A stretch of 64,000 nt of DNA from Thermodesulfobium acidiphilum (GTDB lineage: Bacteria > Thermodesulfobiota > Thermodesulfobiia > Thermodesulfobiales > Thermodesulfobiaceae). This document shows, one piece after another, positions 2,191-62,522 of this stretch; positions within the stretch are counted from its first letter, which is position 1; every line of letters starts with the position of its first letter. Location: contig NZ_CP020921.1 in the NCBI RefSeq assembly GCF_003057965.1, forward strand, positions 394,100-458,099, given 5' to 3'. The notes under the pieces were generated by a model. It saw nothing but the letters and a program-made list of their open reading frames with translations. It did no database searches and was not told where the DNA came from. The translations under genes were made by a program, and so were the position numbers.

Positions 2191-2712
2191 TTAGAACATA
2201 CCCCTTATTTCATTTAAGCTTTGAACCTTTATAGTCGCTTTAAGTATGTTTCTTAACTTCTCCCTATCTTTTGTTTTTTTCACCATTAATTTATATCTCT
2301 TGGGACTTTATCGAATTTGGCTTCAATGGCATCTAAAAGTAAATCCTGGGCGTCAATAATCATACCCTCTTCTCTTCCCTTTTCTATCCACTTCTCAATT
2401 ACAGGTGCCATCTTATCACCTCCTACAGTAGAGTCTAATATAGCTTTCATTTCCTCTTCTTCTAGATCATTTACATTTTATCCCAATTCGTTTTTCCATG
2501 ATAGAAAACTACTGGAATAAACTGAACTTGTCTAAATTAAACCCCTTATACTTCTTTGAAATCTTTTCTGTGTTTATAGGTTTTATTGTATCAAAGTCCA
2601 GTTGTTTTAAAATCTCTTTTGGCAAAGAGAATTCTACAAAGCCCTTTGAATTCTCAATATTTGAGGTTATCTGTTTAAAGAATTTATCGTGTATTTGTTG
2701 TATGTCTTCCAT
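2191..2712 (-). pseudogene. Rpn/YhgA-like (Transposase_31, PD-(D/E)xK) pseudogene with internal deletions and frameshifts
   Basis: Fragments in family order but different frames: MEDIQQIHDKFFKQ..LPKEILKQLDFDT; VIPVVFYHGKTNW; GGDKMAPVIEKWIEKGREEG..EAKFDKVP; KLRNILKATIKVQSLNEIRGMF*. Confidence 0.8.
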
Positions 2713-2767
2713 AAATTGATTTAAACACAAGAATAGGGAAGTGTCAAATAGGGGAGTTCTTTAGTTT

Positions 2768-2872
2768 TAATTGTCTGACAATTATTAAAATTACTTAATT
2801 TAAGCGATAATTTTAATTATGTCAGAAGTGCTTGACAAGTCTGACAATTATATGTATTATTGTCAGACATAC
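2768..2872 (+). promoter_or_regulatory. Sigma70 promoter of the cbb operon with repeated TGTC-W-GACA operators
   Basis: TTGACA (2832-2837), 17-bp spacer, TATTAT (2855-2860). Perfect palindrome TAATTGTCTGACAATTA at 2768-2784; further copies AGTCTGACAATTA (2838-2850) and TATTGTCAGACATA (about 2858-2871). Confidence 0.8.
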
Positions 2873-2891
2873 TTATGAAAGGAGGTTGGCA

Positions 2892-3035
2892 ATGGCGGAT
2901 GGGATTAGTTTTCTTTTCCTGGGTTTAGAGGCTTTTTTGTTTTTTGAGTTTAATCTCAGGTTGTATGACATTGTCAACCTGGATTACTCCCCTAAAAAAT
3001 CTTTGGAGGTGAAAGAGCTATGCAAATTTTTTTAG
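2892..3035 (+). CDS. Putative 47-aa Phe-rich small protein or leader peptide overlapping the tal start
   Basis: AAAGGAGG SD just upstream of ATG 2892; [47 protein letters not shown]. Confidence 0.4.
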
Positions 3036-3673
3036 ATACTGCGAAAATTGACGAAATTAGAAAATTAGTTCCTACTGGTGTGGTAGATGGTGTTACCACG
3101 AATCCATCACTGCTTGCAAAGGCTGGTTGTAAAGACATTAAAGGTGCAATAAAGGAAATTTGTGCTCTGGTAAAAGAGCCTGTTAGCGTAGAGGTTATAG
3201 GGACTCAAGCAGATCAGATGATAAAAGAAGCAAGAGAATATTCATCCTGGAAGCTAAATACTGCTGTAAAGATCCCTATGACGGAAGAAGGCTTAAAGGC
3301 TGTAAGCGTTTTGTCAAAAGAAGGCATTAAGACGAACGTTACGCTCATTTTTTCAACTAGCCAGGGACTTCTTGCAGCTAAAGCAGGTGCGACCTTTGTG
3401 AGCCCATTTGTTGGCAGGTTGGATGACATATCCCATAACGGTCTGGAAGTGGTAAGAGACCTGGCACATATATTTAAGATTTATGGGATAAATACAAGAA
3501 TTATTGCAGCCAGCATCAGACATCCTATTCACGTAGTAGAATCTGCGAAAGCGGGAGCTCACATCGCCACAATCCCCACTAAGGTTTTAGAGGCTATGTT
3601 TAGACACCCGCTGACTGACATAGGGATTGAGAAATTTTTAAGCGATTGGAAAGGGCTTCAGGAATCAAAATAG
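3020..3673 (+). CDS. tal: Transaldolase (short TalC/FSA family)
   Basis: [13 protein letters not shown] and VKIP (Schiff-base Lys). PVSVEV (Glu) and SPFVGR (Phe) are the transaldolase-type rather than FSA-type residues. Confidence 0.93.
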
Positions 3674-3707
3674 TTTAGAAGTAAAAAAATAATAATGAGG
3701 TGAAATT

Positions 3708-4997
3708 ATGAGCAATAAATTAAATATTAAATATACAAATTTTTTGGATTTTGACTACGTTCCGAAAAAAAATGATGTGCTGGCTGCCTTTTACGTGGAA
3801 CCTGCTCCAGGGACAGACATTAAAGAGGCTGCTGGAGCTGTGGCATCTGAGTCATCTATAGGTACATGGACAGATCTTGCTACTATGAAACAAAGTATTT
3901 GGGATGAATTGAGAGCAAGAGTTTATTCTATAGAAGGCGATGTTGTAAGGATAGCATATCCAGACGTGCTCTTTGAAGCAGCTAATCTTCCTCAGTTTTT
4001 AAGTAGCATTGCGGGAAACGTCTTTGGAATGAAAGCAGTAGAAAATTTAAGGTTGTTAGACATCGTTCTCACACAAAAATTTTTGGATGAGTTAAATGGA
4101 CCTGCTTTTGGAGTAGAGGGCGTAAGAGAGGTATTGAACGTCAAGGACAGACCCTTGGTTGGAACTATTGTTAAGCCAAAGTTAGGGCTTGATCCAAAGG
4201 AGCAGGCAAAGGTAGTATATGAATCTCTTGTTGGTGGTTTAGATCTGGTAAAGGATGATGAAAACCTCACTCATCAAGATTTTTCTAATTTTGATGAGAG
4301 GGTAAAATATTCGCTCGATGCGGTTAGGCGCGCTGAAAAAGAGACTGGTGAGAAAAAGGCATATCTGCCAAACGTTACAGCTCCCACAGAGGAGATGTTA
4401 AGAAGAGCTACTCTGGTTAAACAAGAAGGTGGAAAGTATGCGATGGTGGACGTAATAACCACAGGTTTCGCAGGGGTTCAAAGTCTCAGGAATGCAAATA
4501 CAGGGCTGATACTACATGCTCACAGGGCTATGTATGCAAGCTTTGCAAGAAGCAAAAAACACGGCATTCACATGTTAGTTCTCTCAAAGCTTTTGAGATT
4601 TGCAGGAGTGGACCAGCTTCATATTGGCACTGTAGTAGGAAAAATGGAAGGAGATAGGGATGACGTATTGGTGTGTCATGAAGCTTTGGGTTCTAGCAGT
4701 GAAATGAAAGTGAAAACATATTTGCCACATCAAGAATGGGGCAATATGAAGAGCGTTTTTTCTGTAGCATCTGGTGGGCTTCACCCAGGCCATACAGCTG
4801 ATCTTTATAAAATATTTGGGAAAAATGCTATTTTTCAATATGGCGGAGGAGTTCACGGACATCCAGAAGGAACCAGAATGGGTGCAAGGGCTGTAAGGGA
4901 TGCAGTTGAGTGTGCTGTTAAGGGAATAACTTTGAAAGAAGGGGCAAAGAGCAGCAAGGCGCTTGAAATTGCCCTATCAAAATGGGGAGGTGCATAA
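3708..4997 (+). CDS. rbcL: RubisCO large subunit, form III
   Basis: ESSIGTW, GNVFGMK, KPKLG, DLVKDDE, HAHRA, LHIGT, GKMEG, SGGLHPG, GGGVHGHP; 429 aa; no rbcS nearby. Confidence 0.95.
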   Translation: MSNKLNIKYTNFLDFDYVPKKNDVLAAFYVEPAPGTDIKEAAGAVASESSIGTWTDLATMKQSIWDELRARVYSIEGDVVRIAYPDVLFEAANLPQFLSSIAGNVFGMKAVENLRLLDIVLTQKFLDELNGPAFGVEGVREVLNVKDRPLVGTIVKPKLGLDPKEQAKVVYESLVGGLDLVKDDENLTHQDFSNFDERVKYSLDAVRRAEKETGEKKAYLPNVTAPTEEMLRRATLVKQEGGKYAMVDVITTGFAGVQSLRNANTGLILHAHRAMYASFARSKKHGIHMLVLSKLLRFAGVDQLHIGTVVGKMEGDRDDVLVCHEALGSSSEMKVKTYLPHQEWGNMKSVFSVASGGLHPGHTADLYKIFGKNAIFQYGGGVHGHPEGTRMGARAVRDAVECAVKGITLKEGAKSSKALEIALSKWGGA

Positions 4998-4998
4998 A

Positions 4999-5895
4999 AT
5001 GAGCGTCGATCCTGTATTTATAGGCATAGCTGGGGATAGCGGTGCTGGAAAGAGCACATTTGTAAAAGATATAGCCACTCTTTTGGGTAGAGATAAGGTA
5101 AGAACTATATCTTTTGACGATTATCACTCTCTTGATAGGGTTGAGAGAAAGGCTATAGGGATTACTCCTCTTCATCCCAGGGCAAACAATCTCGGCCTTG
5201 CAATCGAGCACCTCTTTTTGCTTAAACAAGGGAAAAAGGTCTTAAAGCCCGTTTACGATCACTCTACAGGCAGTTTTGGAGATCCTGAGTGGGTGGTTCC
5301 TGTGCCTTATATAATATGTGAAGGTCTGCATCCATTTTTCTTTAGGTCTCTTGCAGAACTCTATGATATGAAGGTTTACTACGATACCCAGATGGATTTG
5401 AAATTCAACTGGAAGGTAAAAAGGGATACAGCAGAAAGAGGATATACAGTAGAACAGGTAGCAAAAGAGATCAGGCTCAGACAAAGAGATATTAGGAACT
5501 TTGTAGAGCCACAATGTGCTCTTGCGGATATAATAATCAAATTAAAGATTTCAAAAACTAGCTCTTCTGCAATTGGAGTGGACTGGAAGGAACCAGTCGA
5601 TGATCCCTGGTTAAAGAAGTATTTGAAATCGTGTAATTTTGATGATTGGAAGTGTTTTAACGAGTGGTATGCGGGTAGAAAGATGAACGTTTTTGGAATA
5701 CAAAGCGATTTAACTCAGGATCAGTTGAAAGAATTAAGTTCTATATTCTCTATAAGTCAAGATGTTCTTTCTAAGGTTAAGGAAAAGGAAGTAGTACCAT
5801 ATCGAACTATGTTAGTTTTGTTTGCTACCAGAATCAAGCAAATTAGGGCATCAAAGGACAAAGAAGAAAAGGTGGTGTTCAAAGATGCCGTTTAG
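4999..5895 (+). CDS. prk: Phosphoribulokinase
   Basis: [14 protein letters not shown]-loop, [29 protein letters not shown]; start at ATG 4999, right after rbcL. Confidence 0.93.
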
Positions 5896-6766
5896 CAGGA
5901 TTGTATATAAGCCTGAATATGATGAGCTTGAGAAAAAGGCTTTGATTATCAGAAAAAATATAGTAAAAATGATTGGCAAAGCTGGATCAGGCCATCCAGG
6001 TGGTTCTCTTTCATGCGTAGATATATTAACTGCGCTATATTTCAGGATTTTGAGAATTAGTCCAAAATATCCGAAAGATCCTGAAAGGGATAGGTTTGTT
6101 CTGTCAAAGGGTCATGCTGCTCCGGCCTTGTATGCTACCCTTGCTGAAACAGGATTTATTCCATATGAATGGTTGGATGATTTAAGAGTGTTAGGGTCTC
6201 CTCTTCAAGGGCACCCTGATATGAAAAAAGTTCCCGGAGTTGAGATGTCTACAGGCTCTCTGGGACAGGGATTGAGCGTAGGAGTCGGCATGGCTCTTTC
6301 TGCAAAGATTTTAGAAAGTGGATATAGAGTTTTTGTGCTTCTTGGAGATGGAGAGTGTCAGGAAGGTCAGGTGTGGGAGGCCGCTATGGCTGCCTCTCAT
6401 TTCAAGCTTACAAATATTGTGGCAATTGTAGATAGAAATAGATTGCAAATTGATGGCTGCACAGAAGACGTTATGGGAGTTGAACCCTTAGGGGCAAAAT
6501 GGAAGGCTTTTGGTTGGACTGTGATAGAAGTAGACGGTCATGATTTTCTCGAATTAATACCTGCTCTTGAAGCTATATCTTACACTTCAAAGCCTACTGC
6601 AATAATTGCCAATACGGTAAAGGGCAAAGGTGTATGCTTTATGGAGAACAACGTAGATTGGCACGGAAAGGCTCCAAAACCAGATCAATTAGAAGAAGCT
6701 CTGAAGGGCTTTGAAGGGGTTGAGTTTATGGAATCTGAGGACGTAGAGATAGATTCCAAAAATTAA
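5885..6766 (+). CDS. Transketolase, N-terminal (TPP-binding) subunit
   Basis: [38 protein letters not shown]. Confidence 0.93.
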
Positions 6767-6797
6767 GGAATTAAGAAAATGAAAGGAGATGTTCTGT

Positions 6798-7850
6798 GTG
6801 GCCATTGTATCTGATAGGGAGATTGCTACAAGAGAGGCATATGGTAAGGCTTTGGTAGAACTTGGCAGACAAAATAACAATGTGGTGGTTCTTGACGCTG
6901 ATCTGGCTAAGTCTACCCAAACTATAAAGTTTGCAAAGGAATTTCCAGATAGATTTTTTGACGTTGGGATTGCGGAGGCAAATATGATAGGGATTGGAGC
7001 AGGATTAGCTGCTTGTGGAATGGTGGTTTTTTGTTCTTCCTTTGCAATATTTGCTACGCAAAGGGTATTGAATCAGATCTTTCAATCTGTGGCATACCCT
7101 GGTCTAAACGTAAAAATTGCTGCAAGCCATGCCGGAATCAGCGTTGGAGAGGATGGAGCTACCCATCAGTCGGTTGATGATATCTCAATTATGAGATCTA
7201 TACCAAATATGACAATTGTTGTTCCTGCTGACGCACATGAGGCTTATGAGGCTACCTTTGCAGCTGCAAACTTTGAAGGACCCGTTTATCTAAGGCTTAG
7301 CAGGATGGCAACCCCCGTAGTTACCCCTCCAGGAAAGCCGTTTGAAATTGGAAAGGCCATTGTGCTAAGAGAGGGAAAGGATATCACTATAGCAGCCTGT
7401 GGAATAATGGTTTATGAAGCTCTTGGCGCTGCAGAGAGACTTTCAGGACTTGGAGTAGAAGCTGAGGTAATCAATTACAATACAATTAAACCCTTTGACA
7501 AAGATACTCTTGTGGACTCGTTAATAAAGACTAGGGCTGTTTTAAGCGTTGAAGAGCATAGCATAATAGGTGGCTTGGGAAGCGCAATTGCAGAATGTGT
7601 GGCAGAAGAATTCCCTGTAGCTATGGCAAGAGTGGGTATAAGGGATCAATTTGGTCAATCTGGCAAAAGTTTAGATCTTTTAAAGCACTATCAGCTTACT
7701 TCAGAGGATATAGCAAAGGAAGCGCTGAAACTTTTGGAAACTAAAAGAAAGGCAAACGAGATATATGAGATTTCAGCTTCAACAAAAAGTAACTTTGAAC
7801 CCTTAGGCCCAGAAGTTGAGGGAGGGATGTCAGATGAAGGTAGCAATTAA
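6798..7850 (+). CDS. Transketolase, C-terminal subunit
   Basis: ATREAYG, DADL, GIAEANM, GEDGATHQ, VEEHSIIGGLG; GTG 6798 is better spaced from the AAGGAG SD than ATG 6789. Confidence 0.93.
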   Translation: MAIVSDREIATREAYGKALVELGRQNNNVVVLDADLAKSTQTIKFAKEFPDRFFDVGIAEANMIGIGAGLAACGMVVFCSSFAIFATQRVLNQIFQSVAYPGLNVKIAASHAGISVGEDGATHQSVDDISIMRSIPNMTIVVPADAHEAYEATFAAANFEGPVYLRLSRMATPVVTPPGKPFEIGKAIVLREGKDITIAACGIMVYEALGAAERLSGLGVEAEVINYNTIKPFDKDTLVDSLIKTRAVLSVEEHSIIGGLGSAIAECVAEEFPVAMARVGIRDQFGQSGKSLDLLKHYQLTSEDIAKEALKLLETKRKANEIYEISASTKSNFEPLGPEVEGGMSDEGSN

Positions 7851-8835
7851 CGGTTTTGGAAGAATTGGTCGTTTGGTGGCCAGAATTTCAAGTGATTATA
7901 AAGATATAGACATTGTTGCAATAAACAGTTCAAAAAATACTGCTATGCTGGCTAATTTGTTAAAACACGATTCTATATATAGAGACTTTGATAAGAAAGT
8001 AAGTTATGATAGCGATTCGCTTTATATCAACGATAAAAAAATTCTTGTCTTTGAAGAAAGAACTGATATCTCTAAACTTCCATGGAAAGATCTGGATATT
8101 GAGATAGTAGTAGAGTCTACTGGTAAATTTACAAAAAAAGAAGATGCGTACAAGCACATAATTGCAGGTTGTAAAAAGGTGCTTATTAGTGCGCCAAGTA
8201 AAGACGCTGATTGTATGGTTGTCTATGGCGTAAACCATAAAGACATACTGCCTTCCTTTGAAGTAATATCTGCAGCTTCGTGCACTACCAATTGTCTTGC
8301 TCCGGTTTGCAAGGTTTTAAACGATGAGTTTGGAATTGAAAAGGGTACTATGACTACAGTTCACGCATATACGTCGGATCAAAGACTATTAGACGGCACG
8401 CACAAAAAGGATCCAAGAAGGGCAAGAGCTGCAGCTATAAACATGGTACCAACTTCTACAGGGGCTGCAAGGGCTATTGGAAAGATATTCCCTGAGCTTG
8501 AAGGGAAGCTTGACGGAATATCTTTGAGAGTGCCAGTTCCTACGGCTTCTATAGTTGATTTGTCTGTGAATCTCAAAAAGAACCCTGAAATAGCGGATAT
8601 AAATGAAGCGTTTAAGGGCTATTCAAATGACTCAATGAAAGGCATTTTATACTATTCACAAGAGCCTCTAGTATCAAGTGACATTATAGGCAGCAGATAT
8701 TCTTCTATTGTGGATGGACTTTTAATATCAAAAATTCAAGACATTTATAAGGTATTTTCCTGGTATGACAACGAATTTGGTTATGCCAGTAGAATTGTTG
8801 ATTTGATCAGATTTTTGTCAGGGGGAGGGGACTGA
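7834..8835 (+). CDS. gap: Glyceraldehyde-3-phosphate dehydrogenase, type I
   Basis: INGFGRIGR, ASCTTNCL, WYDNEFGY. Confidence 0.95.
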   Translation: MKVAINGFGRIGRLVARISSDYKDIDIVAINSSKNTAMLANLLKHDSIYRDFDKKVSYDSDSLYINDKKILVFEERTDISKLPWKDLDIEIVVESTGKFTKKEDAYKHIIAGCKKVLISAPSKDADCMVVYGVNHKDILPSFEVISAASCTTNCLAPVCKVLNDEFGIEKGTMTTVHAYTSDQRLLDGTHKKDPRRARAAAINMVPTSTGAARAIGKIFPELEGKLDGISLRVPVPTASIVDLSVNLKKNPEIADINEAFKGYSNDSMKGILYYSQEPLVSSDIIGSRYSSIVDGLLISKIQDIYKVFSWYDNEFGYASRIVDLIRFLSGGGD

Positions 8836-8836
8836 A

Positions 8837-10042
8837 GTGAGTTTGTTTGATAGAGCCTCTCTACTTGATTATCCAATATACAGGCTTCAGGGCAAAAGAG
8901 TGTTTGTAAGAGCGGATCTAAACGATCCAGCCGACTCAGAAGGTAATTTGACTGGAGACATGAGGCTCAGGGCAGTGGCTCCCACACTGGCATATTTGTG
9001 TGCTGCAAGGGCAAAGGTGATTCTGGCTTCGCACTTTGGAAGGCCAAAGAACAGAGAAGCGAACTTTTCATTAAAGGGAGTAAGGAAAAGGCTTTCTGAG
9101 ATGCTTGGTTTTAACATAAACTTTATCCCGGAATGTACAGGGAGTGAGTTGGAGGAATTTGTTTTAAACGAATTAAAAGAAGGCGAGATTTTACTGATTG
9201 AAAATCTTAGATTTTGTCCGGGAGAGACAAAAAACGACATGCAATATGCGAGGTTTTTAGCCTCTTTGGGAGACATTTTTGTCCAGGAAGCTTTTGGTGC
9301 ATGCCATAGAGAACACGCTTCAATAGCCTCTTTGCCAAAACTCTTGCCTTCTTTTGCGGGATTTTTACTTGAAAAGGAGGTTATTGCCTTGAGCAAGATT
9401 TTAAAAAGTCCAAAGAGACCTTTTCTTTTAATCTTAGGCGGTAAAAAGGTTTCTGATAAGATAAAGCTTATAAACAATATGATTGAGAAGGTTGACTGTA
9501 TATGTATAGGTGGTGGCATGGCTTTTGCCTTTTTGAGGGCGAATGGATATGATGTGGGCAAGTCCTTTGTGGAAGAGTCTATTGATGACGTAGCGCGCCA
9601 AATACTTTATAAAGCTGGTGAAATGGGAAAGAAGATAGTCTTGCCAATAGACGTTTTGGTGGCAAAGGATATAATAAGTGGTAGTGAGTGTAGACTCGTC
9701 GATGCTCACAGAATACCTGCGGACTGGTATGGAGTTGATATTGGCCCTAAGACTTTGGAGCTTTTCAAGGAAGAAATATTGAAGGCAAAGACTATTTTGT
9801 GGAATGGTCCAATGGGAGTATTTGAGATCCCTGAGTTTTCGTGGGGTTCAAGAGCTATTGCTTTAGCAGTGGCTCTAAGCGAGGCGGTGAGCGTCTGTGG
9901 TGGCGGTGATACATCTGACGTACTTAGGCTAACTAATATGGTCAACTACTTTTCCCACGTTTCTACGGGCGGTGGAGCAGCTTTAAAGTTTTTGGAAGGT
10001 GAAAATTTGCCCGGAATTGACGTCCTCCCTAAAGTAATGTAG
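8837..10042 (+). CDS. pgk: Phosphoglycerate kinase
   Basis: RADLN, SHFGRP, ENLRF, WNGPMGVFE, STGGGA. Confidence 0.95.
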   Translation: MSLFDRASLLDYPIYRLQGKRVFVRADLNDPADSEGNLTGDMRLRAVAPTLAYLCAARAKVILASHFGRPKNREANFSLKGVRKRLSEMLGFNINFIPECTGSELEEFVLNELKEGEILLIENLRFCPGETKNDMQYARFLASLGDIFVQEAFGACHREHASIASLPKLLPSFAGFLLEKEVIALSKILKSPKRPFLLILGGKKVSDKIKLINNMIEKVDCICIGGGMAFAFLRANGYDVGKSFVEESIDDVARQILYKAGEMGKKIVLPIDVLVAKDIISGSECRLVDAHRIPADWYGVDIGPKTLELFKEEILKAKTILWNGPMGVFEIPEFSWGSRAIALAVALSEAVSVCGGGDTSDVLRLTNMVNYFSHVSTGGGAALKFLEGENLPGIDVLPKVM

Positions 10043-10089
10043 GGATTATTTAACTATGAAATAAAATATTTGGAAAGAGGGTAGATCCT

Positions 10090-11061
10090 ATGAAGATAGA
10101 AAAAGGAATAGATCTAAGCAGGTTTATTCTTGAGGAAGAAAGGAAATATCCTAAAGCCTCAGGAACTTTGTCTCGCATACTTATCTCAATAGAAAATGCT
10201 ACCAAGATAATTTCTTCCCATATTAGAAAAGCTGGTCTTGTAGACGTTCTTGGCAAGGTAGGTAGGATAAACGTCCAGGGAGAGGAAGTCCAAAAACTTG
10301 ATGAGTTGGCGAACAACTGGTTAGTTGAGCATCTTGCTTCTACGGGCGACTTCTTTGCTGTTGTATCGGAAGAGATGGAGAAGGCGTTTTTCCCTGAGGG
10401 GGGCAAAGACGGGAAGTATGTAATATGTCTTGATCCTTTGGATGGGTCTTCTAATGTAGATGTAAATATAAGCGTGGGAACGATATTTTCAATTTACAAA
10501 AGGATATCTGACGATGACACATCGTTTCTTCAAGAAGGAAGAAAACAGGTAGCTGCGGGTTATGTAATTTACGGTTCCTCTACAATGCTAGTGTATTCTA
10601 CAGGTAACGGAGTAAACGGTTTTACTCTGGATCCCGGGGTTGGATCGTTTATTTTGTCACACCCAAATATAAGGATACCAGAAAAAGGAAAGATATATGC
10701 TTTTAACGAATCAAATTATAAAAGATGGTCTGATGGTATAAAAAAATATGTCGATATTGTGAAGGAAAAAGGATACACGTTGAGATATGTGGCATCAATG
10801 ATTGCTGACGTTCACAGAACCCTTTTGAAGGGCGGAATATTTGCCTATCCAGCAGATAACGTGAATAAAAATGGAAAGATAAGACTCCTTTATGAAGCAA
10901 ATCCGTTGGGATTTCTGGTAACTCAGGCAGGAGGAATTGCAAGCAACGGTAACTCTAACATCCTTGATGTAAAGCCAGAATCCCTTCATCAGAGGACGCC
11001 TATCTTTATGGGTAGCAAAATGGATATGGAGGAATTTCTTTCTGTAACTAAAGAGAGTTAA
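10090..11061 (+). CDS. fbp: Fructose-1,6-bisphosphatase class I
   Basis: NVQGEEVQKLD, SEE, DPLDGSSN, KIRLLYEANP. Confidence 0.93.
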   Translation: MKIEKGIDLSRFILEEERKYPKASGTLSRILISIENATKIISSHIRKAGLVDVLGKVGRINVQGEEVQKLDELANNWLVEHLASTGDFFAVVSEEMEKAFFPEGGKDGKYVICLDPLDGSSNVDVNISVGTIFSIYKRISDDDTSFLQEGRKQVAAGYVIYGSSTMLVYSTGNGVNGFTLDPGVGSFILSHPNIRIPEKGKIYAFNESNYKRWSDGIKKYVDIVKEKGYTLRYVASMIADVHRTLLKGGIFAYPADNVNKNGKIRLLYEANPLGFLVTQAGGIASNGNSNILDVKPESLHQRTPIFMGSKMDMEEFLSVTKES

Positions 11062-11125
11062 AAAATTAAATTTTAATATTTTTTGATATTATTTATAATA
11101 TAAATTCTCTTTTAAGGAGTTTGAT

Positions 11126-11569
11126 ATGAAGATTTCTATTGCGACTGATCACGGTGCCTTTGAACTAAAAAATAAGATTAAAGATTATTTAATATCAAAA
11201 GGCTATGAAGTTACTGATTTTGGTTGTTTTAGCAACGAAAGTGTAGACTATCCGCCAATTATAGCTAAAGCTGCAAGAGCAGTTTCAATAGGAAAGTGTG
11301 AAAGGGGTATAGTGCTGTGTGGTTCTGGAATAGGTGCATCTATTGTTGCAAACAAGATTAAAGGTATTAGATGTGCCTTGGTTTATGCTCCAGAACTTGC
11401 AAGGCTTTCAAGAGAACACAACAATGCAAATATGATAGCTCTTGGTGGCAGGTTTACTGACTTCGACACTGCTAAAGAGCTTGTGGATATTTTCTTGACT
11501 ACCGAATTTCAGGGCGGAAGACACCTTAGGAGAGTAGAGCAAATTATGGATTTAGAAAAATTTTTATGA
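11126..11569 (+). CDS. rpiB: Ribose-5-phosphate isomerase B
   Basis: DHGA, DYP, CGSGIG, HNNAN, GGRH. Confidence 0.95.
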   Translation: MKISIATDHGAFELKNKIKDYLISKGYEVTDFGCFSNESVDYPPIIAKAARAVSIGKCERGIVLCGSGIGASIVANKIKGIRCALVYAPELARLSREHNNANMIALGGRFTDFDTAKELVDIFLTTEFQGGRHLRRVEQIMDLEKFL

Positions 11570-11584
11570 ATTTTGGAGGCTGCC

Positions 11585-12211
11585 ATGTTAATATCCGGTT
11601 CTATTCTGTCGGCTGATTTTTTAAATTTTGAAAGAAATATAAGAGAATTAGAGCCATATGCTGATGCCTGGCATGTAGACGTTATGGATGGGCACTATGT
11701 GCCCAACATATCTTTTGGACCGCAATTTGCAACTTATTTGGCAAAATGTTCTAAACTTCCCGTGTCCGTTCACCTTATGGTAAAGGAACCAGAAAAGTTT
11801 GTAAGTCTGGTTCCGAAAACCGTAAGAGAAGTAACCTTTCATCAGGAAGCTACCGTTGCACCTGTGAGATTTTGTGCAATGCTAAGGGAGATGAACTTCT
11901 TGCCTGGAATTAGTATTGGGCCAGGAGTGCACGAAAGCTCTATATTTGAGATATTGCCGTTTGTACATCACGTTTTGTTTATGAGTGTTGAGCCAGGATT
12001 CGGTGGACAGTCATTTATTGAACCAGTTTTTGAGAAAATAAATAGGTTAGTCAAACTTTATCCCAATAGAAATTTTGAGATCTGGGTTGATGGGGGCGTG
12101 GATATGTTTTGGGGTGAAAAACTAAAAGAGATTGGTACAGATCTGGTAGTTATGGGTAGTGCCTTTTTTAAGGCCAGGGACCCCGGTGAATTTGGAAAGC
12201 TTAGGGGGTAA
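11585..12211 (+). CDS. rpe: Ribulose-phosphate 3-epimerase
   Basis: SILSADF, HVDVMDGHYVPN, MSVEPGFGGQ, VDGG. Confidence 0.93.
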   Translation: MLISGSILSADFLNFERNIRELEPYADAWHVDVMDGHYVPNISFGPQFATYLAKCSKLPVSVHLMVKEPEKFVSLVPKTVREVTFHQEATVAPVRFCAMLREMNFLPGISIGPGVHESSIFEILPFVHHVLFMSVEPGFGGQSFIEPVFEKINRLVKLYPNRNFEIWVDGGVDMFWGEKLKEIGTDLVVMGSAFFKARDPGEFGKLRG

Positions 12212-19876: not shown

Positions 19877-20594
19877 CCTTGAAACGTATTATGAGATTTT
19901 TGGAGCAGGGACCGATTGTCTGATTTTGCACGGTGGCAGTGAAAACATTAGTACGATGCATAATCTGGCAGGTAGACTGTCTGAAAAGAATTATAAGATA
20001 TATTTGCCTGAACGAAGGGGACATGGCAGAAGCCTGGATACAGGCGATGAGTTTTCTTATGAACAGTTTGCATCAGACACATATCAGTTTATAAAAGCCT
20101 TTAAGCTGGAAGGGTGTTATGCAGTAGGTTATAGCGATGGGGCGATAATTCTTCTGCTTTTGTCGATAGAGAATCCAACACTTTTCAAGAAGATCGCTTT
20201 GTTGGGGGGACAATATCACTATGAGGGTCTTGAACCATATTTTGTAAAAGCTTTAAAGACAGATAACGTTTTAAAACTTTTTGAAAAAGAGAGAATAGAA
20301 TATGAAAGGATAAATAAATACGGCGTAAGTTTCGAAAAATTCCTGAAAAAAATAATTTTGCTGTGGCTGACATCTCCGAAAATTGATTATACAGAGCTCA
20401 AAAAGATAACCACTCCTACTTTGATAATTAGCGCTGACAGAGACATTATAAAGCTTGAACACACTATTTCTATGTTTAGGGCGATTGAAAGATCACATCT
20501 TGCAATTATACCCAATTCTAATCACAATTTCCCAATTTCTAGACCTAATTTTACAGCTAGTTTGATTTTGAACTTTTTTAACTCAAAGCCATGA
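19854..20594 (+). CDS. Alpha/beta hydrolase
   Basis: LHGG, RGHGRS, GYSDGA nucleophile elbow, C-terminal His; GTG 19854 after AAGGAG. Confidence 0.88.
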   Translation: MPSIKINNLETYYEIFGAGTDCLILHGGSENISTMHNLAGRLSEKNYKIYLPERRGHGRSLDTGDEFSYEQFASDTYQFIKAFKLEGCYAVGYSDGAIILLLLSIENPTLFKKIALLGGQYHYEGLEPYFVKALKTDNVLKLFEKERIEYERINKYGVSFEKFLKKIILLWLTSPKIDYTELKKITTPTLIISADRDIIKLEHTISMFRAIERSHLAIIPNSNHNFPISRPNFTASLILNFFNSKP

Positions 20595-22894
20595 AAATTA
20601 AAGTATGTCCTTTTCAGATTCTCGTATCAAAGGAAAACAGGAAGCCTTCAATATGTATAAATTGTTTAGATGAAAATGGCGAAAGGATAAAATTGTTTGA
20701 TGATAGTTTCAGACCAAGTTTTTACGTGCTTGTCGAAGAGAACAGTGAAAGGATAGAGTCTGTTATTAACTCTTCTCTTAATGAGGGAGTTAAGGAATTT
20801 AAAATAGAAAACAAGATATATATTGGTGAGAATAAGAGGTTTTATAGGATATATTTTGATTTCAATGAAGATAAGGACGTCCAAAGTGCTAAATTTTTTA
20901 AAAAATTTAGAGAGTTTATTTTATTTCATCACGATCTGAGGCCAACAGTTCAGTATATCTTAGAAAAGAACATAACCTTTTGCGCTTTCAATGAGATAGA
21001 AGTAAATAAATTTTCAGATGGTTATAGGGTAGAGGGTGATTTTTCTTTATATAGCTACGATTATCCTGACTTTAAATCTATGTCCTTTTACTTCTTGACA
21101 GATAGCAAGGTGTTAAATCCTGATCCAGAAATAAACAAAGTTACTTATATATCAATATTTTCCAATGAGGGGCCGATGACTTTTGAGGGGGACGAAAGGG
21201 GTATCTTTGAGAGTTTTTTAACATTTATCAAACGTTACAAGCCGAGCATCATATACGTTTTTAACGTCGGTCAAGATGATTTTGACTTCATGGCGAAAAG
21301 GGCAAAAAGCTTAGGCCTTGATCTAAAATTTGAGGATAGTCTTCCTGTTAAAGGCCAATTTGGTTCCATTCAAATAGATTCGATAGTAATATTCGATCTC
21401 TTCCAATATGCCCAGACTTTGTATGACCTTAAGCAAAAGGAATTAAAAAAGACTTTAGAGTTTTTGAATATAGCTTTTCAAAAGGATTACATTCTAGACC
21501 AGATCGAACTTGTAAAAGCTATTGAGTTTTTAGATGCTGAAAGGTTGTCAAAGCATTGTAAATATTCTGCCAAATCTATCTTTGATCTTGGAGAGCTAAC
21601 CCATCAGTTATACTTTTCTCTATCTCAGATTACGTTTATGCCGCTTGATGTTGTGATATTTGCTCCTACCGGGTTTAGGGTTGAAGGGCTTTTTATGAAA
21701 AAGAGTTATTTACAAAATATGATAATATTGCCGAAAAAACGACACGTTAGCGATTCTTATGAAGGGGGTATAGTTCTAAAGACATCTCCTGGAGTGTATA
21801 AGAACGTAGTAGTTTTAGACTTTAAGAGCATGCTTCCGTCTATTATGATAAGATATAACATTTCATTTGATACATTTGTTGAGGAAAGCTGTGATGAAGA
21901 ATGCTTTAAGTCTCCAAAGAATAAATATAAGTTTAGAAAGAGACCGGACGGATTCTATAAAAAAATCCTTCAAGAATTAATTTCTGAAAGGGATAGAATA
22001 AAAAAAAGTATGGATAATTTTCCAAAGTCTTCGAAAGAGTATATCTTCCTGAACGCTAAACAAAAGACCTTGAAGATAATTACAAATGCCTGTTATGGAT
22101 ATGCAGGGTGGCAAAGTGCCAGGTGGTTTAAGAAAGAAATTGCTGAGGCCACTTCCGAGTGGGGCAGGAAGACTCTAACAGATGCAATAGAACTGGCTGT
22201 AAGTTTAGGTCTTGAGATTATATATGGCGACACAGATAGCCTTTTTATAAAAGAAAGTGAAAATATAAGCAAATTTCTTTCAGAATTGAAACTTAGGGGC
22301 GAAATTATTAAAGTTGACGAAGTCTTTAGATCGGTTGTTTTTACTGAGGCTAAGAAAAAATATGCTGGAATTAACGATTCCGGGGAGCTAGTCCTGGTTG
22401 GTTTTGAAGGGGTCCACGGTGATGTTCCAGAAATTGTTAGGATTGTTCAGGAAAAAATTTTAAGATCTATTTTGAATTTTAAAGGATTTGATGCTGCTAT
22501 AGAAATTTTACAGGACGAAATAGAGAAGCTAAGAAATAATGAATATCCACTTTTGTCCTTTGTAATTTATAGGGCTGTTAATAAGAATATAAGTTCATAT
22601 GAAGTAAGAGCACCTCACGTTGAGGCTGCTAAAAAATACATTCAGATGGGATTCAAGTTGAGATCGGATAACATTATAGGATATGTGATTACAAAAGGTG
22701 CTGGAGCAATTAACTCAAGGGCTATGCCTTATATCTATTTGAAAGTCGAGGATGTAGATGTTGATTACTATATAAAAAATTTACTTGTTCCTTCTGTTTC
22801 AAGAATTCTATATAGCATTTTTGGAAAAAAAGTTGTCTTTAAAAACGACAAATTGATTGTGGATAATGATAAAAAGGATTATCTTTTCAATTGA
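20591..22894 (+). CDS. polB: Family B DNA polymerase, archaeal-like
   Basis: YEGGIV, DFKSMLPS, KIITNACYGY, YGDTDSLF, KKKYAG, YEVRAPHV. Confidence 0.9.
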   Translation: MKIKVCPFQILVSKENRKPSICINCLDENGERIKLFDDSFRPSFYVLVEENSERIESVINSSLNEGVKEFKIENKIYIGENKRFYRIYFDFNEDKDVQSAKFFKKFREFILFHHDLRPTVQYILEKNITFCAFNEIEVNKFSDGYRVEGDFSLYSYDYPDFKSMSFYFLTDSKVLNPDPEINKVTYISIFSNEGPMTFEGDERGIFESFLTFIKRYKPSIIYVFNVGQDDFDFMAKRAKSLGLDLKFEDSLPVKGQFGSIQIDSIVIFDLFQYAQTLYDLKQKELKKTLEFLNIAFQKDYILDQIELVKAIEFLDAERLSKHCKYSAKSIFDLGELTHQLYFSLSQITFMPLDVVIFAPTGFRVEGLFMKKSYLQNMIILPKKRHVSDSYEGGIVLKTSPGVYKNVVVLDFKSMLPSIMIRYNISFDTFVEESCDEECFKSPKNKYKFRKRPDGFYKKILQELISERDRIKKSMDNFPKSSKEYIFLNAKQKTLKIITNACYGYAGWQSARWFKKEIAEATSEWGRKTLTDAIELAVSLGLEIIYGDTDSLFIKESENISKFLSELKLRGEIIKVDEVFRSVVFTEAKKKYAGINDSGELVLVGFEGVHGDVPEIVRIVQEKILRSILNFKGFDAAIEILQDEIEKLRNNEYPLLSFVIYRAVNKNISSYEVRAPHVEAAKKYIQMGFKLRSDNIIGYVITKGAGAINSRAMPYIYLKVEDVDVDYYIKNLLVPSVSRILYSIFGKKVVFKNDKLIVDNDKKDYLFN

Positions 22895-34383: not shown

Positions 34384-34746
34384 TTAATAATTTAATACTG
34401 AGTTAGCCTCTAATATCTCTTTGATGGCTTTTCCGGCTTTTGTGAGCTCACAGCCATCAACTATCATTTCCTTTGTGATGCCTCTTTCTTCACAACAAGG
34501 AATGCATAGGAATATCTTTCCACCATTTGAAAGAAAATTCTCTACATGTTTTTTTATCGGATCATGTCCAGGTGCCTTTATGTGTTCGTAAACTCCCTTT
34601 GTTACTGTGTATACACCGTTTGCCTGCAAACAAACTATAACCTCAGCATCCATTGCAAGGGCTGCATTAGCCATTACGTATGCAAGGGTTGCCTTTTCAG
34701 GGTCTTCTGGTCCGATTGTCGACATAACTACAACTTTTTCGCTCAA
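34384..34746 (-). CDS. DsrE/DsrF-like sulfur relay protein (copy 3)
   Basis: GPEDPEKAT..ANAALAMD..LQANGV..GGKIFLCIPCC. Confidence 0.85.
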   Translation of the reverse strand: MSEKVVVMSTIGPEDPEKATLAYVMANAALAMDAEVIVCLQANGVYTVTKGVYEHIKAPGHDPIKKHVENFLSNGGKIFLCIPCCEERGITKEMIVDGCELTKAGKAIKEILEANSVLNY

Positions 34747-34795
34747 ATTAGAATTTCCTCCTTAGAATTTAGTTATAAAAATACACTTTAAAGAT

Positions 34796-35158
34796 TTAAT
34801 AGTTTAATGTGGTTTTGGCTTCCAGTATAGCTTTCATAGCCTTGCCAGACTTGGCCATTTCGCAGCCTTCCAGTATTTGGTCTTGAGAAATATCTCTTTC
34901 CTGACAACAGGGGATACAAACATAAAATTTTCCACCATTTGAAAGAAAATTCTCTACATGTTTTTTTATCGGATCATGTCCAGGTGCCTTTATGTGTTCG
35001 TAAACTCCCTTTGTTACTGTGTAAACGCCATTTGATTGGAGAACCATCAATACCTCAGCATCCATTGCAAGGGCTGCATTAGCCATTACGTATGCAAGGG
35101 CTGCCTTTTCTGGGTTTTCTGGCCCAGAAGATAAGGTAATTACAAGCTTTTCACTCAT
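34796..35158 (-). CDS. DsrE/DsrF-like sulfur relay protein (copy 2)
   Basis: Close paralog of 34384-34746; CIPCC. Confidence 0.85.
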   Translation of the reverse strand: MSEKLVITLSSGPENPEKAALAYVMANAALAMDAEVLMVLQSNGVYTVTKGVYEHIKAPGHDPIKKHVENFLSNGGKFYVCIPCCQERDISQDQILEGCEMAKSGKAMKAILEAKTTLNY

Positions 35159-35191
35159 TTTTTTCCTCCGATTAAGTTTTTAGATTGATAA

Positions 35192-35554
35192 TTAATAAAA
35201 CATTACTAAGTCTGATTCGGCCATGTCTAACATTGCTCTTCCGGCTCCAACTATTTGAGCATTTCTAACAAGATCTTTCTCAGTTATGTTTCTGGCTTTA
35301 CTTGCGCAAACGCATAAATAGAATTTACCGCCCTGTTCTATAAAGTTCTTTACGTAAATTTCCAGAGGATCATAATCTTTATACGTAATTCTCTCAAACA
35401 TTCCGTTAACTGCTGTAAAAACTCCTCCGCTTTGAAGCCACATAGTAACTTCATAGTCCATTGCAAAAGCAGCGTTTGCCATAATAAAGGCACCTATAAC
35501 TTTTTCAGGGTTATCAGGACCTGATGTGAGTGCAATAAAAGCCTTCTTTGCCAT
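35192..35554 (-). CDS. DsrE/DsrF-like sulfur relay protein (copy 1)
   Basis: GPDNPEK..ANAAFAMD..GGKFYLCVCA. Confidence 0.85.
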   Translation of the reverse strand: MAKKAFIALTSGPDNPEKVIGAFIMANAAFAMDYEVTMWLQSGGVFTAVNGMFERITYKDYDPLEIYVKNFIEQGGKFYLCVCASKARNITEKDLVRNAQIVGAGRAMLDMAESDLVMFY

Positions 35555-35573
35555 TCTCTCCTCCTAACACTAT

Positions 35574-36554
35574 TTATGAATTTTGTAAGTATGATTTAAC
35601 TAAGATTTCGGAAAGATCCAGGAAACTATCCTTTGAAGGAGAACTTTCTTTTAAGTTTAATAAGCAAATTGGACACATTGTAGTTACTATGTTTGAACAG
35701 GATAATAAATCGTTTGCTCTTTTTGAGGCAATTTCTTTTGCTTTTTTTGGGAAGAGTGACTCAATTGGACCACCGCAACAGTGAGTAAGCTTTCTTGAAA
35801 GTTCTGGTTCTACATAATTTATTCCGGCATTTTTTAAAAGAACTCTTGGCTCTTCTATTATCTCTTCATATCTTGCCAGGACACAGGAATCATGAATAGC
35901 GACTGTCATATCTAGCTTATTTTGAGGTTTGATTTTATTTTCATATAATACTTCAATATAATTTTTTACTTCGTAATTAAATTCTGGCAAAATCTTTTTA
36001 TAAACCCTTCTAAGCATGTGTGTAGTGTGTGGATCGACTGTAATAATATTTTTAACGTTATTGTCTTTAAGAATTTTGTTTAATGTCTTTGCTTGATTTA
36101 TTAGCGGTTCGTCTATACCGTTGTCGTACAAAAGAGTACCAACATAAAGTTCATCCTCATATAAGTATCCTGCCTCTACACCGGCGTACTTTAAAAGCTT
36201 ATAGATATTTTGCAGACATCTTTCTGACCTTTCTACCTCATTTCTCTCAGGTTTTGCAGCGTATTTGGACATTGAAGAAAGGTTGACAAACTTATTAACG
36301 ATTCTGCCTACTGGAGCTAGTTTCATAAGAGGGGAATCTTCGAGATTTTCGTAAAGAGTGGTTGCTGATTTTGTGATGGGCATAAGCTGGTACATGTGTC
36401 CCGTATAAATTATTGTTTCTGTACCTCTTTTTATGTCTAAATCTTTTGCCCATGATGTAAGGCTTTTTTCTGAAACGCTAAATACTGTTTTTCTCTTTTC
36501 AAAATTATCGTTTAATATTCCTAAAACCGCTCCCACTTTGCTCATTTTTTTCAC
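35574..36554 (-). CDS. CCG-domain Fe-S protein (HdrB/HdrD-like)
   Basis: HDSC..CCGG..CPIC intact; first CCG repeat degenerate (ELYVG, TVDPH). Confidence 0.85.
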   Translation of the reverse strand: MKKMSKVGAVLGILNDNFEKRKTVFSVSEKSLTSWAKDLDIKRGTETIIYTGHMYQLMPITKSATTLYENLEDSPLMKLAPVGRIVNKFVNLSSMSKYAAKPERNEVERSERCLQNIYKLLKYAGVEAGYLYEDELYVGTLLYDNGIDEPLINQAKTLNKILKDNNVKNIITVDPHTTHMLRRVYKKILPEFNYEVKNYIEVLYENKIKPQNKLDMTVAIHDSCVLARYEEIIEEPRVLLKNAGINYVEPELSRKLTHCCGGPIESLFPKKAKEIASKRANDLLSCSNIVTTMCPICLLNLKESSPSKDSFLDLSEILVKSYLQNS

Positions 36555-36853
36555 ACTCCAAGCTTGCTTTTGGCAAGATAATTTCTTATAAGCCTTATAT
36601 TTTCTGTAATATTAACTTCATGTGGGCATTGCTCTTCACACATTCTACACAAAAGGCATGAAAATACCTGATCGGTGCTCTCAAGAATTTTTTCTTCTTC
36701 ACCTAAGAGAACATATCTAAAGAGTTTTCTGGGTAAAATATCAAATCCTACTGGACACAGTGCTGAGCAAGTCCCACAATTAAAACATGCTGAAGCGTTG
36801 AAATCTTCGCTTATTTTAATCTTATCTATCAATCCAGAATTGACTTTTATCAT
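36551..36853 (-). CDS. HdrC-like 2x[4Fe-4S] protein
   Basis: CFNCGTCSALCP and CLLCRMCEEQCP; start at ATG 36853. Confidence 0.88.
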   Translation of the reverse strand: MIKVNSGLIDKIKISEDFNASACFNCGTCSALCPVGFDILPRKLFRYVLLGEEEKILESTDQVFSCLLCRMCEEQCPHEVNITENIRLIRNYLAKSKLGV

Positions 36854-36854
36854 C

Positions 36855-37097
36855 TTATTTCTCCTTGAGAGCGTATTTATAGTAATCATCTCGTCTCTTT
36901 TTTGGAAGTTCTTCGACAAGATTGTATCTGCGCATTGCCATTAGATGCATAGTAACCTCATAAGTTGGAATATTTAATTCCTTTGAAATTTCTGGTATTG
37001 TCTTTGGTTCACTTTTGAGCAAAGAAGCTATTTTTTCGTGGAAATACATCTCATTTTTTATAACGTGTAAAGGCGGCTTAATAAATTTTTTTATCAT
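36855..37097 (-). CDS. Small winged-helix hypothetical protein in the hdr cluster
   Basis: PKTIPEISKELNIPTYEVTMHLMAMRRYNLV; tightly coupled to both neighbours. Confidence 0.7.
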   Translation of the reverse strand: MIKKFIKPPLHVIKNEMYFHEKIASLLKSEPKTIPEISKELNIPTYEVTMHLMAMRRYNLVEELPKKRRDDYYKYALKEK

Positions 37098-41400: not shown

Positions 41401-41415
41401 GCCTACTCCTTATAG

Positions 41416-41811
41416 TTAATTATTTAACTCACTTAATGCTTTATGAAACTTTTTAATATGTGATACAAATGACTCTGCACAAACTGAACATATTGCTGCC
41501 ATTTTTACTCTTCTCGGATCCAGATTGTTTGCTGTAAGGAGTTCTTGTGATTTTTCTACGACTTTTGCAGTTCTATCTGTGCAGTCAGTTAAATAAGGAC
41601 AGTCTGTTCCATCGGCAGCTATAAATACTCCATCAAAGCCATTTTTTATAGCATTTAAAATCCACTTTGGGCTTATACCACTAGAGCAAGGTACTGTTAT
41701 AACTTTAACCGATTCTGGATAGTCCATATGAGATGCCCCTGCAAGGTCAATACCCGGATCTGAGATGTTATTTGTTGAAAAAACCAATATTTTTGGATTA
41801 TTGGTAGACAT
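41416..41811 (-). CDS. mvhD: MvhD/FlpD-family Fe-S subunit (atypical Cys pattern)
   Basis: DLAG..YPESVKVITVPCSSG..GFDGVFIA..DCPY. Confidence 0.85.
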   Translation of the reverse strand: MSTNNPKILVFSTNNISDPGIDLAGASHMDYPESVKVITVPCSSGISPKWILNAIKNGFDGVFIAADGTDCPYLTDCTDRTAKVVEKSQELLTANNLDPRRVKMAAICSVCAESFVSHIKKFHKALSELNN

Positions 41812-41812
41812 T

Positions 41813-42064
41813 TTATTTTCCTCTTTTTACATAAAGTTTCCAATATCCAGCTTCTTCAACAGTTCCTAAAAATTCGTGTCCAACTTTTTCTGCCCATAAT
41901 GGGAGGTCTTCGTTTGTTCCTTCGTCAGAGGATAGAACTTCCATTATCCCGCCAATAGGTATCGAGACGATTTCTCTTTTGGCTGCGAGCAATGGGCCAG
42001 GACAGGCACTCCCTCTTGCATCTACTGTTTTGTCTACTTTCAAATTTTTCAAGTCTAAGCTCAT
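41813..42064 (-). CDS. tusA: TusA-family sulfurtransferase
   Basis: DARGSACPGP..DLPLWAEKVGH. Confidence 0.92.
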   Translation of the reverse strand: MSLDLKNLKVDKTVDARGSACPGPLLAAKREIVSIPIGGIMEVLSSDEGTNEDLPLWAEKVGHEFLGTVEEAGYWKLYVKRGK

Positions 42065-42080
42065 GACATCCTCCTAATAT

Positions 42081-42449
42081 TTATTTTTTTATTTTAAAGC
42101 AAAGAAAATTGCTTTCCAAACTCATTTCTTTTGCAAAATTGCCCTTTTTTTTCATTGTTTCATAAAGAATTTGTCTTATAAGATTACAGGCTTCACCTAA
42201 CCTTTTGTCTGAGAGTGAGTAGTAAATTGTTTTGCCCTCTTTTCTGGCTTCTACTAAATTGTGTGATCTAAGAATAGCTAGATGCTGGCTAACAGTTGAT
42301 GGTCTTGCGCCTATTGTTTTAGCAATTTCTGTTACGTTTGCCTCCCCTTCAGCAAGCATTGCTATTATCATAAGCCTTTTCGAACTGGAAAGGCTTTTGC
42401 AAAGCTCTGCATGGGCATCAAAGAGTTGCAGCAAATTAATTATAATCAC
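42081..42449 (-). CDS. ArsR/SmtB-family transcriptional regulator
   Basis: KRLMII..VSQHLAILR..RKEGKTIYYSL. Confidence 0.9.
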   Translation of the reverse strand: MIIINLLQLFDAHAELCKSLSSSKRLMIIAMLAEGEANVTEIAKTIGARPSTVSQHLAILRSHNLVEARKEGKTIYYSLSDKRLGEACNLIRQILYETMKKKGNFAKEMSLESNFLCFKIKK

Positions 42450-62521: not shown

Positions 62522-62522
62522 A

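Follow-up and report, generated by a model that had tools for sequence, protein, structure and literature searches.

Predicted GntR-Type Operators Over the Promoter of a Calvin-Cycle Operon in Thermodesulfobium acidiphilum, a Genome With No Detected CbbR

Introduction

What controls the Calvin-cycle (cbb) operon of Thermodesulfobium acidiphilum? Operons of this kind are almost always described as CbbR-activated, and an earlier note on this DNA had proposed that the promoter is covered instead by operators of the GntR/FadR type, arranged for repression and with no regulator gene adjacent. Here we examine the promoter, its relatives elsewhere in the genome and in the genus, and the proteins that might bind them. 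Our preferred reading, made from sequence alone and held at a probability of roughly 0.55, is that the repeats at this promoter are predicted operators of a repressor of the GntR type whose gene lies elsewhere in the genome.

The window is the whole stretch of DNA analyzed, 64,000 nucleotides corresponding to positions 394100-458099 of a single-contig genome of 1,774,794 bp (1.77 Mb) with 33.7% G+C; unless marked as genome positions, coordinates are those of the window. Gene calls are crude, being codon-usage-scored ORFs (n = 1647), and the labels intergenic and coding carry the corresponding error. Genome-wide family searches covered GntR, FCD, LysR, CodY and SorC.

The Operon and Its Genomic Setting

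The operon presumed to be under control comprises ten genes (3020..12211, + strand; Pfam and NCBIfam). Its gene content by Pfam is tal/fsa, type III RuBisCO, PRK, a split transketolase, GAPDH, PGK, FBPase, RpiB and Rpe, the first gene encoding a transaldolase/F6P-aldolase-type protein, and the RuBisCO large chain passes the NCBIfam type III equivalog with 544 bits against a 497-bit cut-off. The same operon is present in three further genomes of the genus, with RuBisCO 88-95% identical.

A family search of the DNA upstream of the promoter returned a YhgA-like transposase remnant, a 138-aa ORF with no family match and a PAS-GAF-GGDEF-EAL protein, which bears out the earlier observation that no regulator gene is adjacent. 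The upstream arrangement is similar in relatives G001 and G002, and no divergent LysR gene lies beside the operon. Genome-wide, there is a single LysR gene, far from the operon; on the CbbR model its product reaches 176 bits, the cut-off being 450, and it passes instead the equivalog of a selenium-metabolism LysR, and no CbbR orthologue was found anywhere in the genome. The LysR box pattern T-N11-A is uninformative in DNA of 29% G+C. The SorC/CggR family likewise gave 0 hits genome-wide.

Two other features of the window may be recorded here. A cluster on the minus strand (34384-42449), with an ArsR-type regulator at its head, has the look of a sulfur-relay/heterodisulfide-reductase-like module: its products are three DsrE-like proteins, CCG and 4Fe-4S proteins of the Hdr-like kind, a pair of large flavin/FeS oxidoreductases, an MvhD-like protein and TusA. 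A family B DNA polymerase gene (20591-22894, 767 aa) sits in this bacterial chromosome adjoining genes for aspartate decarboxylase and RNase HII.

An Array of Palindromes on the cbb Promoter

A promoter scan of 2400-3200 found four promoter-like sites, the best of which is a predicted sigma-70-type promoter (2832..2860, + strand) with TTGACA at 2832-2837, a 17-nt spacer and TATTAT at 2855-2860, matching the consensus at 11 of 12 positions. The start of transcription was taken as ~2867, inferred from this promoter, and the distances that follow are counted from there. Four sites, none assigned a strand, surround it. The farthest, S1 (2768..2784), is a perfect 17-bp palindrome, TAATTGTCTGACAATTA, centered on T2776 at about -91. 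S0 (2818..2830; TATGTCAGAAGTG, with GTCAGAA at 2821-2827) is a half-site abutting the -35 hexamer and centered near -43. S2 (2836..2848; CAAGTCTGACAAT, with GTCTGAC at 2839-2845) lies within the -35/-10 spacer at about -25, and S3 (2859..2871; ATTGTCAGACATA) covers the end of the -10 element and the predicted start, its GTCAGAC (2862-2868) coming straight after the -10 hexamer TATTAT and its center falling near -2. The centers (2776, 2824, 2842 and 2865) are thus spaced by 48, about 18-19 and 23 bp.

The earlier note had described the 17-bp palindrome and GTC-W-GAC copies in the spacer and over the likely start, and its coordinates are confirmed. It had also read the arrangement as repressor geometry, and this is supported by the placement of S2 in the spacer and of S3 over the predicted start of a promoter so close to consensus. 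As far as a predicted start allows, the geometry of the sites indicates repression, not activation.

Clustering of this kind is rare. The core GTCWGAC occurs 57 times in the 1,774,794 bp of the genome, three of these copies falling within 96 bp at the cbb promoter; a Poisson estimate from these counts gives ~5e-9 for at least three copies in a given 100-bp window and ~1e-4 genome-wide. The 13-mer ATTGTCWGACAAT has two perfect copies in the genome, both intergenic (S1 at cbb and one beside a NifV-like synthase gene), and 0 in two simulated Markov-1 genomes. When the 15-mer AATTGTCWGACAATT was sought with up to two mismatches in the 167 kb of intergenic DNA, 10 sites were found, compared with 1.28 +/- 1.1 in 60 Markov simulations, an enrichment of ~8-fold.

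Conservation points the same way. In an alignment of the promoter from this genome and three others of the same genus, the S1 core is invariant at 13 of 13 columns with unconserved flanks, and the block from 2814 to 2872, which holds the half-site, the -35 element, S2, the -10 element and S3, is invariant at 53 of 59; further upstream (2610-2764) the figure is only 31 of 155. The three GTCWGAC cores are kept with equal spacing in 4/4 genomes. Synonymous sites are for the most part close to saturation: dS for tal, the gene next to the promoter, reaches 0.97-1.45 in all genome pairs but one of the six (0.21), so unconstrained bases should be well mixed. Judged from this alignment, S1-S3 and the core promoter block are sequences under selection.

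The conserved promoter block begins just beyond the YhgA-like (Transposase_31) gene or its remnant. One relative keeps an intact copy ahead of the cbb promoter (locus L014, 1584-2474); here (2509-2730, - strand) and in relative G001 only fragments are left.

The Leader and Its Upstream ORF

Might the repeats be something other than protein sites, that is, promoter-associated or chance palindromes kept for a reason such as RNA structure? We regard this as highly improbable. The half-site GACA does resemble a -35 hexamer, and some of the weak sites may be mere -35 elements; the leader, too, carries related inverted repeats. Against this, S1 forms an invariant island of its own ~55 bp ahead of the -35 hexamer, an unrelated locus carries the same 15-mer in conserved form, and the intergenic enrichment reported above has to be accounted for. 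RNA structure cannot explain S1-S3 because they lie upstream of or at the predicted start.

The leader itself is conserved and holds an upstream ORF of 42-47 codons (2892..3035, + strand) with a strong, indeed perfect, ribosome-binding site. All four genomes keep this ORF open; it stops at the tal start codon or overlaps it, and it has no family match. Its dN/dS is 0.16-0.86, compared with 0.015-0.10 for tal, and its dS is below that of tal in five of six genome pairs, so that the constraint looks to be at the nucleotide level or on translation itself and not on the peptide. Within it, an inverted repeat CAGGTTG...CAACCTG (2957..2981, + strand) surrounds the invariant TGACATTGT and may serve as a leader hairpin or as an additional, weak operator (GTTGTATGACATT, 3 mismatches).

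The start of the upstream ORF carries GGTTGRCAATG (2880-2894), which is complementary to the invariant CATTGTCAACC (2968-2980) 75 nt downstream. The fold of the alignment pairs the two segments over 12 bp, with some G-U changes, and would hide the start of the upstream ORF; the alternative to this long-range pairing is the local hairpin at 2957-2981. An RNA element in the leader was considered and rejected as insufficiently supported, given that only two of the 29 pairs in the alignment fold show double changes. The single-sequence fold of the whole leader had a z-score of -0.40, which is not significant, and an Rfam search of 2600-3200 gave 0 matches at E up to 1.

Other Copies and a Candidate Regulon

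The second perfect palindrome lies between a gene of the NifV-type homocitrate-synthase family and sufC, in a block that is invariant in 4/4 genomes. The NifV-like gene passes the equivalog TIGR02660 (532 bits against 463) and belongs to a family said to include Re-citrate synthases as well. The only promoter that the scan offers for it places the operator near -51, outside the classic positions of a repressor. A second paralogue of the NifV/homocitrate-synthase family is encoded within the window (62472-63677), 47-50% identical to the operator-linked one and below the cut-off (392 bits against 463); no motif was noticed near it.

The promoter of the acetyl-CoA synthetase gene (acs) includes a 50-bp block identical in 4/4 genomes that reads, in order, ATTGTCTGATAAT, TTGACA, ATTCTGATAAT in the spacer, and TAGAAT. 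The layout of the cbb promoter is thereby repeated, with a full site at about -43 (the position of S0) and a degenerate site at -25, and another site is found 58 bp upstream. Downstream of acs are genes for an acetate-uptake transporter (AceTr equivalog; satP), an ActP-like symporter and an FMN-dependent hydroxyacid dehydrogenase. Of the 24 occurrences of the half-site word CTGACAATT, eight are intergenic, though only 8.9% of the genome is intergenic by the gene calls.

The 11-mer TTCTGACAATT stands before a second acs paralogue (acs2) and before an acyl-CoA synthetase gene in 4/4 genomes each, in the latter case just after a conserved TGTTATAAT, a roadblock position; before the FMN dehydrogenase gene, whose product is lactate/glycolate-oxidase-like, the exact word is kept in three of four genomes. 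In this genome there is also a weak site upstream of an L-lactate permease gene. With conserved sites at cbb, acs, acs2, the acyl-CoA synthetase gene and the NifV-like gene, the set ties CO2 fixation to the assimilation of acetate and organic acids, and the place of the NifV-like gene within it brings in an acetyl-CoA-condensing enzyme too. The candidate regulon favors an organic-acid or acyl-CoA theme for the putative effector and names no ligand; the glycolate or lactate that the earlier note had offered as a possible signal is a guess.

The two more distant relatives, G002 and G003 (loci L017 and L018), carry extra perfect copies of TTGTCWGACAA within the coding sequence of an MFS transporter and within that of another gene. 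The MFS gene of this genome has a 2-mismatch site 84 bp upstream.

Some of these positions bear on a further alternative, which is that another factor (MarR, ArsR, Rrf2, Crp or the like) binds the sites, or that two factors share them, acting as a repressor or a dual regulator. Sites near -43 at cbb and acs and near -51 at the NifV-like gene are also compatible with activation. A perfect TTGTCWGACAA at genome positions 203786-203796 falls within an Rrf2/IscR-like coding sequence, and the palindrome beside the NifV-like gene has sufC on its other side. The Rrf2/IscR idea was rejected because we judge that core a coding coincidence, encoding simply the Cys-Leu-Thr of a cluster-binding segment and absent among the perfect matches listed for relative G001, and because the conserved extended -10 element of sufC is ~55 bp from the palindrome. 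In its spacing and letters the motif matches no Rrf2, Fur, Rex, Crp or LacI box known to us. Taken as a whole, the explanation by another factor or by two that share the sites seems to us unlikely.

Candidate Binding Proteins

If the sites are protein-binding sites, which protein would read them? Exactly one GntR/FCD gene was found genome-wide: the only GntR hit above the Pfam cut-off (PF00392, 59.5 bits) and the only FCD hit (PF07729, 92.9 bits) fall in the same gene, which encodes a 222-aa regulator (genome 1188270-1188938; Pfam) and lies ~790 kb from the cbb operon. The other three members of the genus examined carry it at 88-97% identity. Among solved structures, those nearest to it are FCD regulators (PDB 7U5Q, 7XP0 and 7XP1), for which a literature search found no publication. 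The protein keeps the Asp/His positions of the aligned metal-binding FCD relatives, positions which presumably bind a metal-carboxylate ligand and which AlkR is without in the alignment. Residues R48, R52, R69 and G71 align with R45, R49, R66 and G68 that contact DNA in AlkR; AlkR is a distant relative (E 1.2e-10), and because the contact arginines are common to the whole FadR subfamily the match shows no specificity.

The letters of the motif suit such a protein. S1, read as TTGT-CTG-ACAA, and the GTCWGAC of S2 and S3 fit the GT-N3-AC core in AT-rich arms of GntR/FadR operators, and in the strong half-site GACAATT the G5/C11 pair, which corresponds to the GntR "GT..AC", is kept at 10 of 11 conserved sites in a hand alignment. 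A G:C pair at position 5 is suited to direct readout by a GntR-type arginine, as in FadR-family recognition. For the FadR subfamily, the form t.GT-N3-AC.a follows the wording of the LhgR preprint (bioRxiv 10.1101/2020.07.07.187567). Footprinted operators of two GntR proteins match the motif exactly: the cbb 13-mer agrees at 13 of 13 letters with the DNase I footprint ATTGTCAGACAAT of AlkR, a GntR/VanR regulator with an FCD domain from P. aeruginosa SJTD-1, which overlaps the -10 regions of alkB2 and whose binding needs Arg45 and Arg49 of the recognition helix (PMC12042122), and at 11 of 11 with the promoter-F2 footprint of LhgR from P. putida W619, a GntR regulator with footprints TAGTCTGACAA and TTGTCTGACAA and the consensus NyGTNxACNy (bioRxiv 10.1101/2020.07.07.187567).

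Other features of the candidate gene are less typical. The earlier note had looked to TTGTCWGACAA upstream of GntR genes as a check, and this expectation failed, in that neither that word nor a GTCWGAC core or matching palindrome, as autoregulation would lead one to expect, was seen in the 50 bp upstream of the gene. FCD regulators commonly adjoin a target and autoregulate, a habit that is usual and not obligatory. The neighbors here are a divergently transcribed ORF, purL and tatC, the last two named from reading their translations. No orthologue was found outside the genus: of four related loci, one is in-genus and three are only 29% identical. With at least six scattered targets, the regulator looks more like a global than a local one. 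Nor is the physiological logic obvious by which one effector would derepress both CO2 fixation and acetate uptake.

A global regulator of another family has also to be weighed. Scattered targets and an unlinked regulator gene are what one would see with such a protein. The sites could be boxes of a divergent CodY, the box having shifted in this lineage from AATTTTCWGAAAATT to AATTGTCWGACAATT; CodY with branched-chain amino acids and/or GTP would then repress CO2 fixation, acetate scavenging and the LeuA/NifV-family synthase when nutrients are plentiful. We consider this unlikely, though a serious rival. A codY gene is present (genome 1201679-1202509; NCBIfam equivalog NF003170, 258.9 bits against 255), its protein is 94-99% conserved in the genus, and among the classic CodY targets of Bacillus are acsA and BCAA-type synthases. 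The motif shares with the canonical CodY box its 7-1-7 layout and 13 of 15 letters, differing only at the symmetric positions 5 and 11. The canonical box is without clear intergenic enrichment (18 sites compared with 10.4 +/- 4.2 simulated, at least four of the 18 being the present sites), so that the present motif is the only enriched CodY-like palindrome. Binding by a dimerized recognition helix is common to CodY and FadR (PMC10415144).

CodY is found here in a non-classical lineage. The protein departs from the aligned Bacillus CodY at LSYS (LSLS here) and at two stretches on either side of the recognition helix, ADRV (AKNS) and ESR (DVH), with Leu in place of the cross-dimer Tyr181 and Lys in place of Arg222. 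The LSYS motif is called invariant in CodY (PMC10415144), and CodY-like proteins outside the Firmicutes have variant motifs (PMC9318921), and the departures make an altered DNA-binding behavior conceivable. On the other hand, the recognition helix ITRSVIVNAL and the wing LGM, with both base-specific contacts, Ser215 and Met237 (PMC10415144), are unchanged here; of the contact residues, Thr213, Ser215, Val216 and Val218 are kept together with the Leu-Gly-Met wing.

The details of the motif also argue against CodY. At T3-T5 this protein recognizes chiefly the shape of a narrow, AT-rich minor groove (PMC10415144). A G:C pair at position 5 should disfavor that readout. G5/C11 is kept in all four genomes, in a motif that otherwise matches the box, and breaks the AT tract read by CodY; the two positions that deviate hold the best-conserved letters of the strong half-site and are a hallmark of GntR. 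Exact footprinted matches exist for FCD regulators, and we know of no footprinted CodY operator that matches the motif exactly. Finally, the spacings of the sites, about 18-19 and 23 bp, with 48 bp from S1, are not the 9-bp overlap of cooperative CodY sites, an offset that is frequent and not obligatory.

A regulon of canonical CodY boxes was also looked for and set aside, there being no clear enrichment and the 1-mismatch sites lying mostly within genes. A near-palindrome, AATTGTTATACAATT, is found 43 bp upstream of codY in a short, fully conserved spacer; as the whole spacer is conserved, the conservation of this element is uninformative.

The earlier claim that the sites are of GntR/FadR type and not of CbbR type thus survives in part. 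The GT-N3-AC core, the footprinted FCD matches, the single GntR/FCD gene and the lack of a CbbR speak for it. The GntR protein is a candidate binder whose gene is remote from the operon, and CodY, with a box differing at 2 of 15 positions, had not been considered.

A Proposed Mechanism and Its Meaning

The sequence shows the sites themselves, how rare and how conserved they are, where they lie with respect to predicted promoters, the agreement of their core with footprinted FCD operators, and the single GntR/FCD gene. The binding protein, repression as its effect and the effector are what we infer for the preferred reading, that of a GntR-type repressor encoded elsewhere. A dimeric winged-helix repressor, likeliest the sole GntR/FCD protein, would bind the palindromes. 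Dimers on S2 in the spacer and S3 at the start would exclude RNA polymerase from the cbb promoter, and S1, the only perfect site and presumably one of high affinity, would act with S0 to recruit or stabilize them, possibly by looping over ~66-89 bp. The same protein would bind at the acs-satP-actP-like cluster and at the promoters of acs2, the acyl-CoA synthetase gene, the FMN-dependent hydroxyacid dehydrogenase gene and the NifV-like gene. Its FCD domain would sense one small molecule, so that occupancy might change jointly at cbb and the acetate genes, and CO2 fixation and the assimilation of C2 compounds and organic acids would answer to one signal.

In the wider form of this proposal, to which we give somewhat less than even odds, either an unlinked FCD-type GntR repressor or a CodY with a drifted box would act as a master switch for carbon in a thermophilic, deep-branching sulfate reducer. 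Just as tentatively, the switch would gate the recently recognized Calvin-cycle variant with form III RuBisCO and transaldolase, together with acetate/acyl-CoA assimilation, through a looped multi-operator promoter. If true, no earlier case would exist of a repressor outside the LysR family dedicated to a Calvin-cycle operon, and its metabolite effector would signal organic-carbon status; in the open literature searched we found no report of GntR or CodY directly controlling a cbb operon. What emerges is a testable model with four mapped predicted operators, two named candidate proteins and a small conserved regulon tying CO2 fixation to acetate. Its confirmation would reveal how an autotroph from a little-studied lineage picks between inorganic and organic carbon, and would supply a compact repressor/operator pair with which thermophilic CO2-fixing hosts could be engineered.

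Comparison With Known Systems

Operator, family and mode of action are all standard, textbook matters here; what is unusual is the cbb target and the absence of CbbR. With the CbbR (LysR)-activated cbb operons the present system shares dedicated transcriptional control of a cbb promoter, but it is without a divergent LysR gene and its geometry points to repression, not activation. Repressors of the LldR/PdhR type, also of the FadR subfamily, use two distant operators and are not known to act on CO2 fixation. The likeness to them lies in the combination of distal and promoter-proximal operators, which suggests looping, and in an organic-acid regulon, whereas their box has the core TGGT...ACCA in place of the TTGTC.GACAA found here.

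The closest operator is that of AlkR at alkB2, which equals the cbb 13-mer and likewise lies over the core promoter (PMC12042122). AlkR binds its palindrome as a dimer and is relieved by a small ligand, as is proposed here, but it is encoded divergently beside its target and responds to C16/C18 acyl-CoA (PMC12042122); our candidate is unlinked, and the site array would control a Calvin-cycle operon. LhgR at lhgO has the same core and is released by a carboxylate, L-2-hydroxyglutarate, but is a local, autoregulated repressor of one catabolic gene (bioRxiv 10.1101/2020.07.07.187567), whereas neither adjacency nor an autoregulatory site is seen here. The CodY box of Firmicutes, AATTTTCWGAAAATT, resembles the present motif as a 15-bp 7-1-7 palindrome with a TCWGA center and AATT ends, and CodY too uses multiple sites per promoter in repression or roadblock positions (PMC10415144); the difference is that G/C replaces T/A at positions 5 and 11 of the conserved half-sites in this genus.
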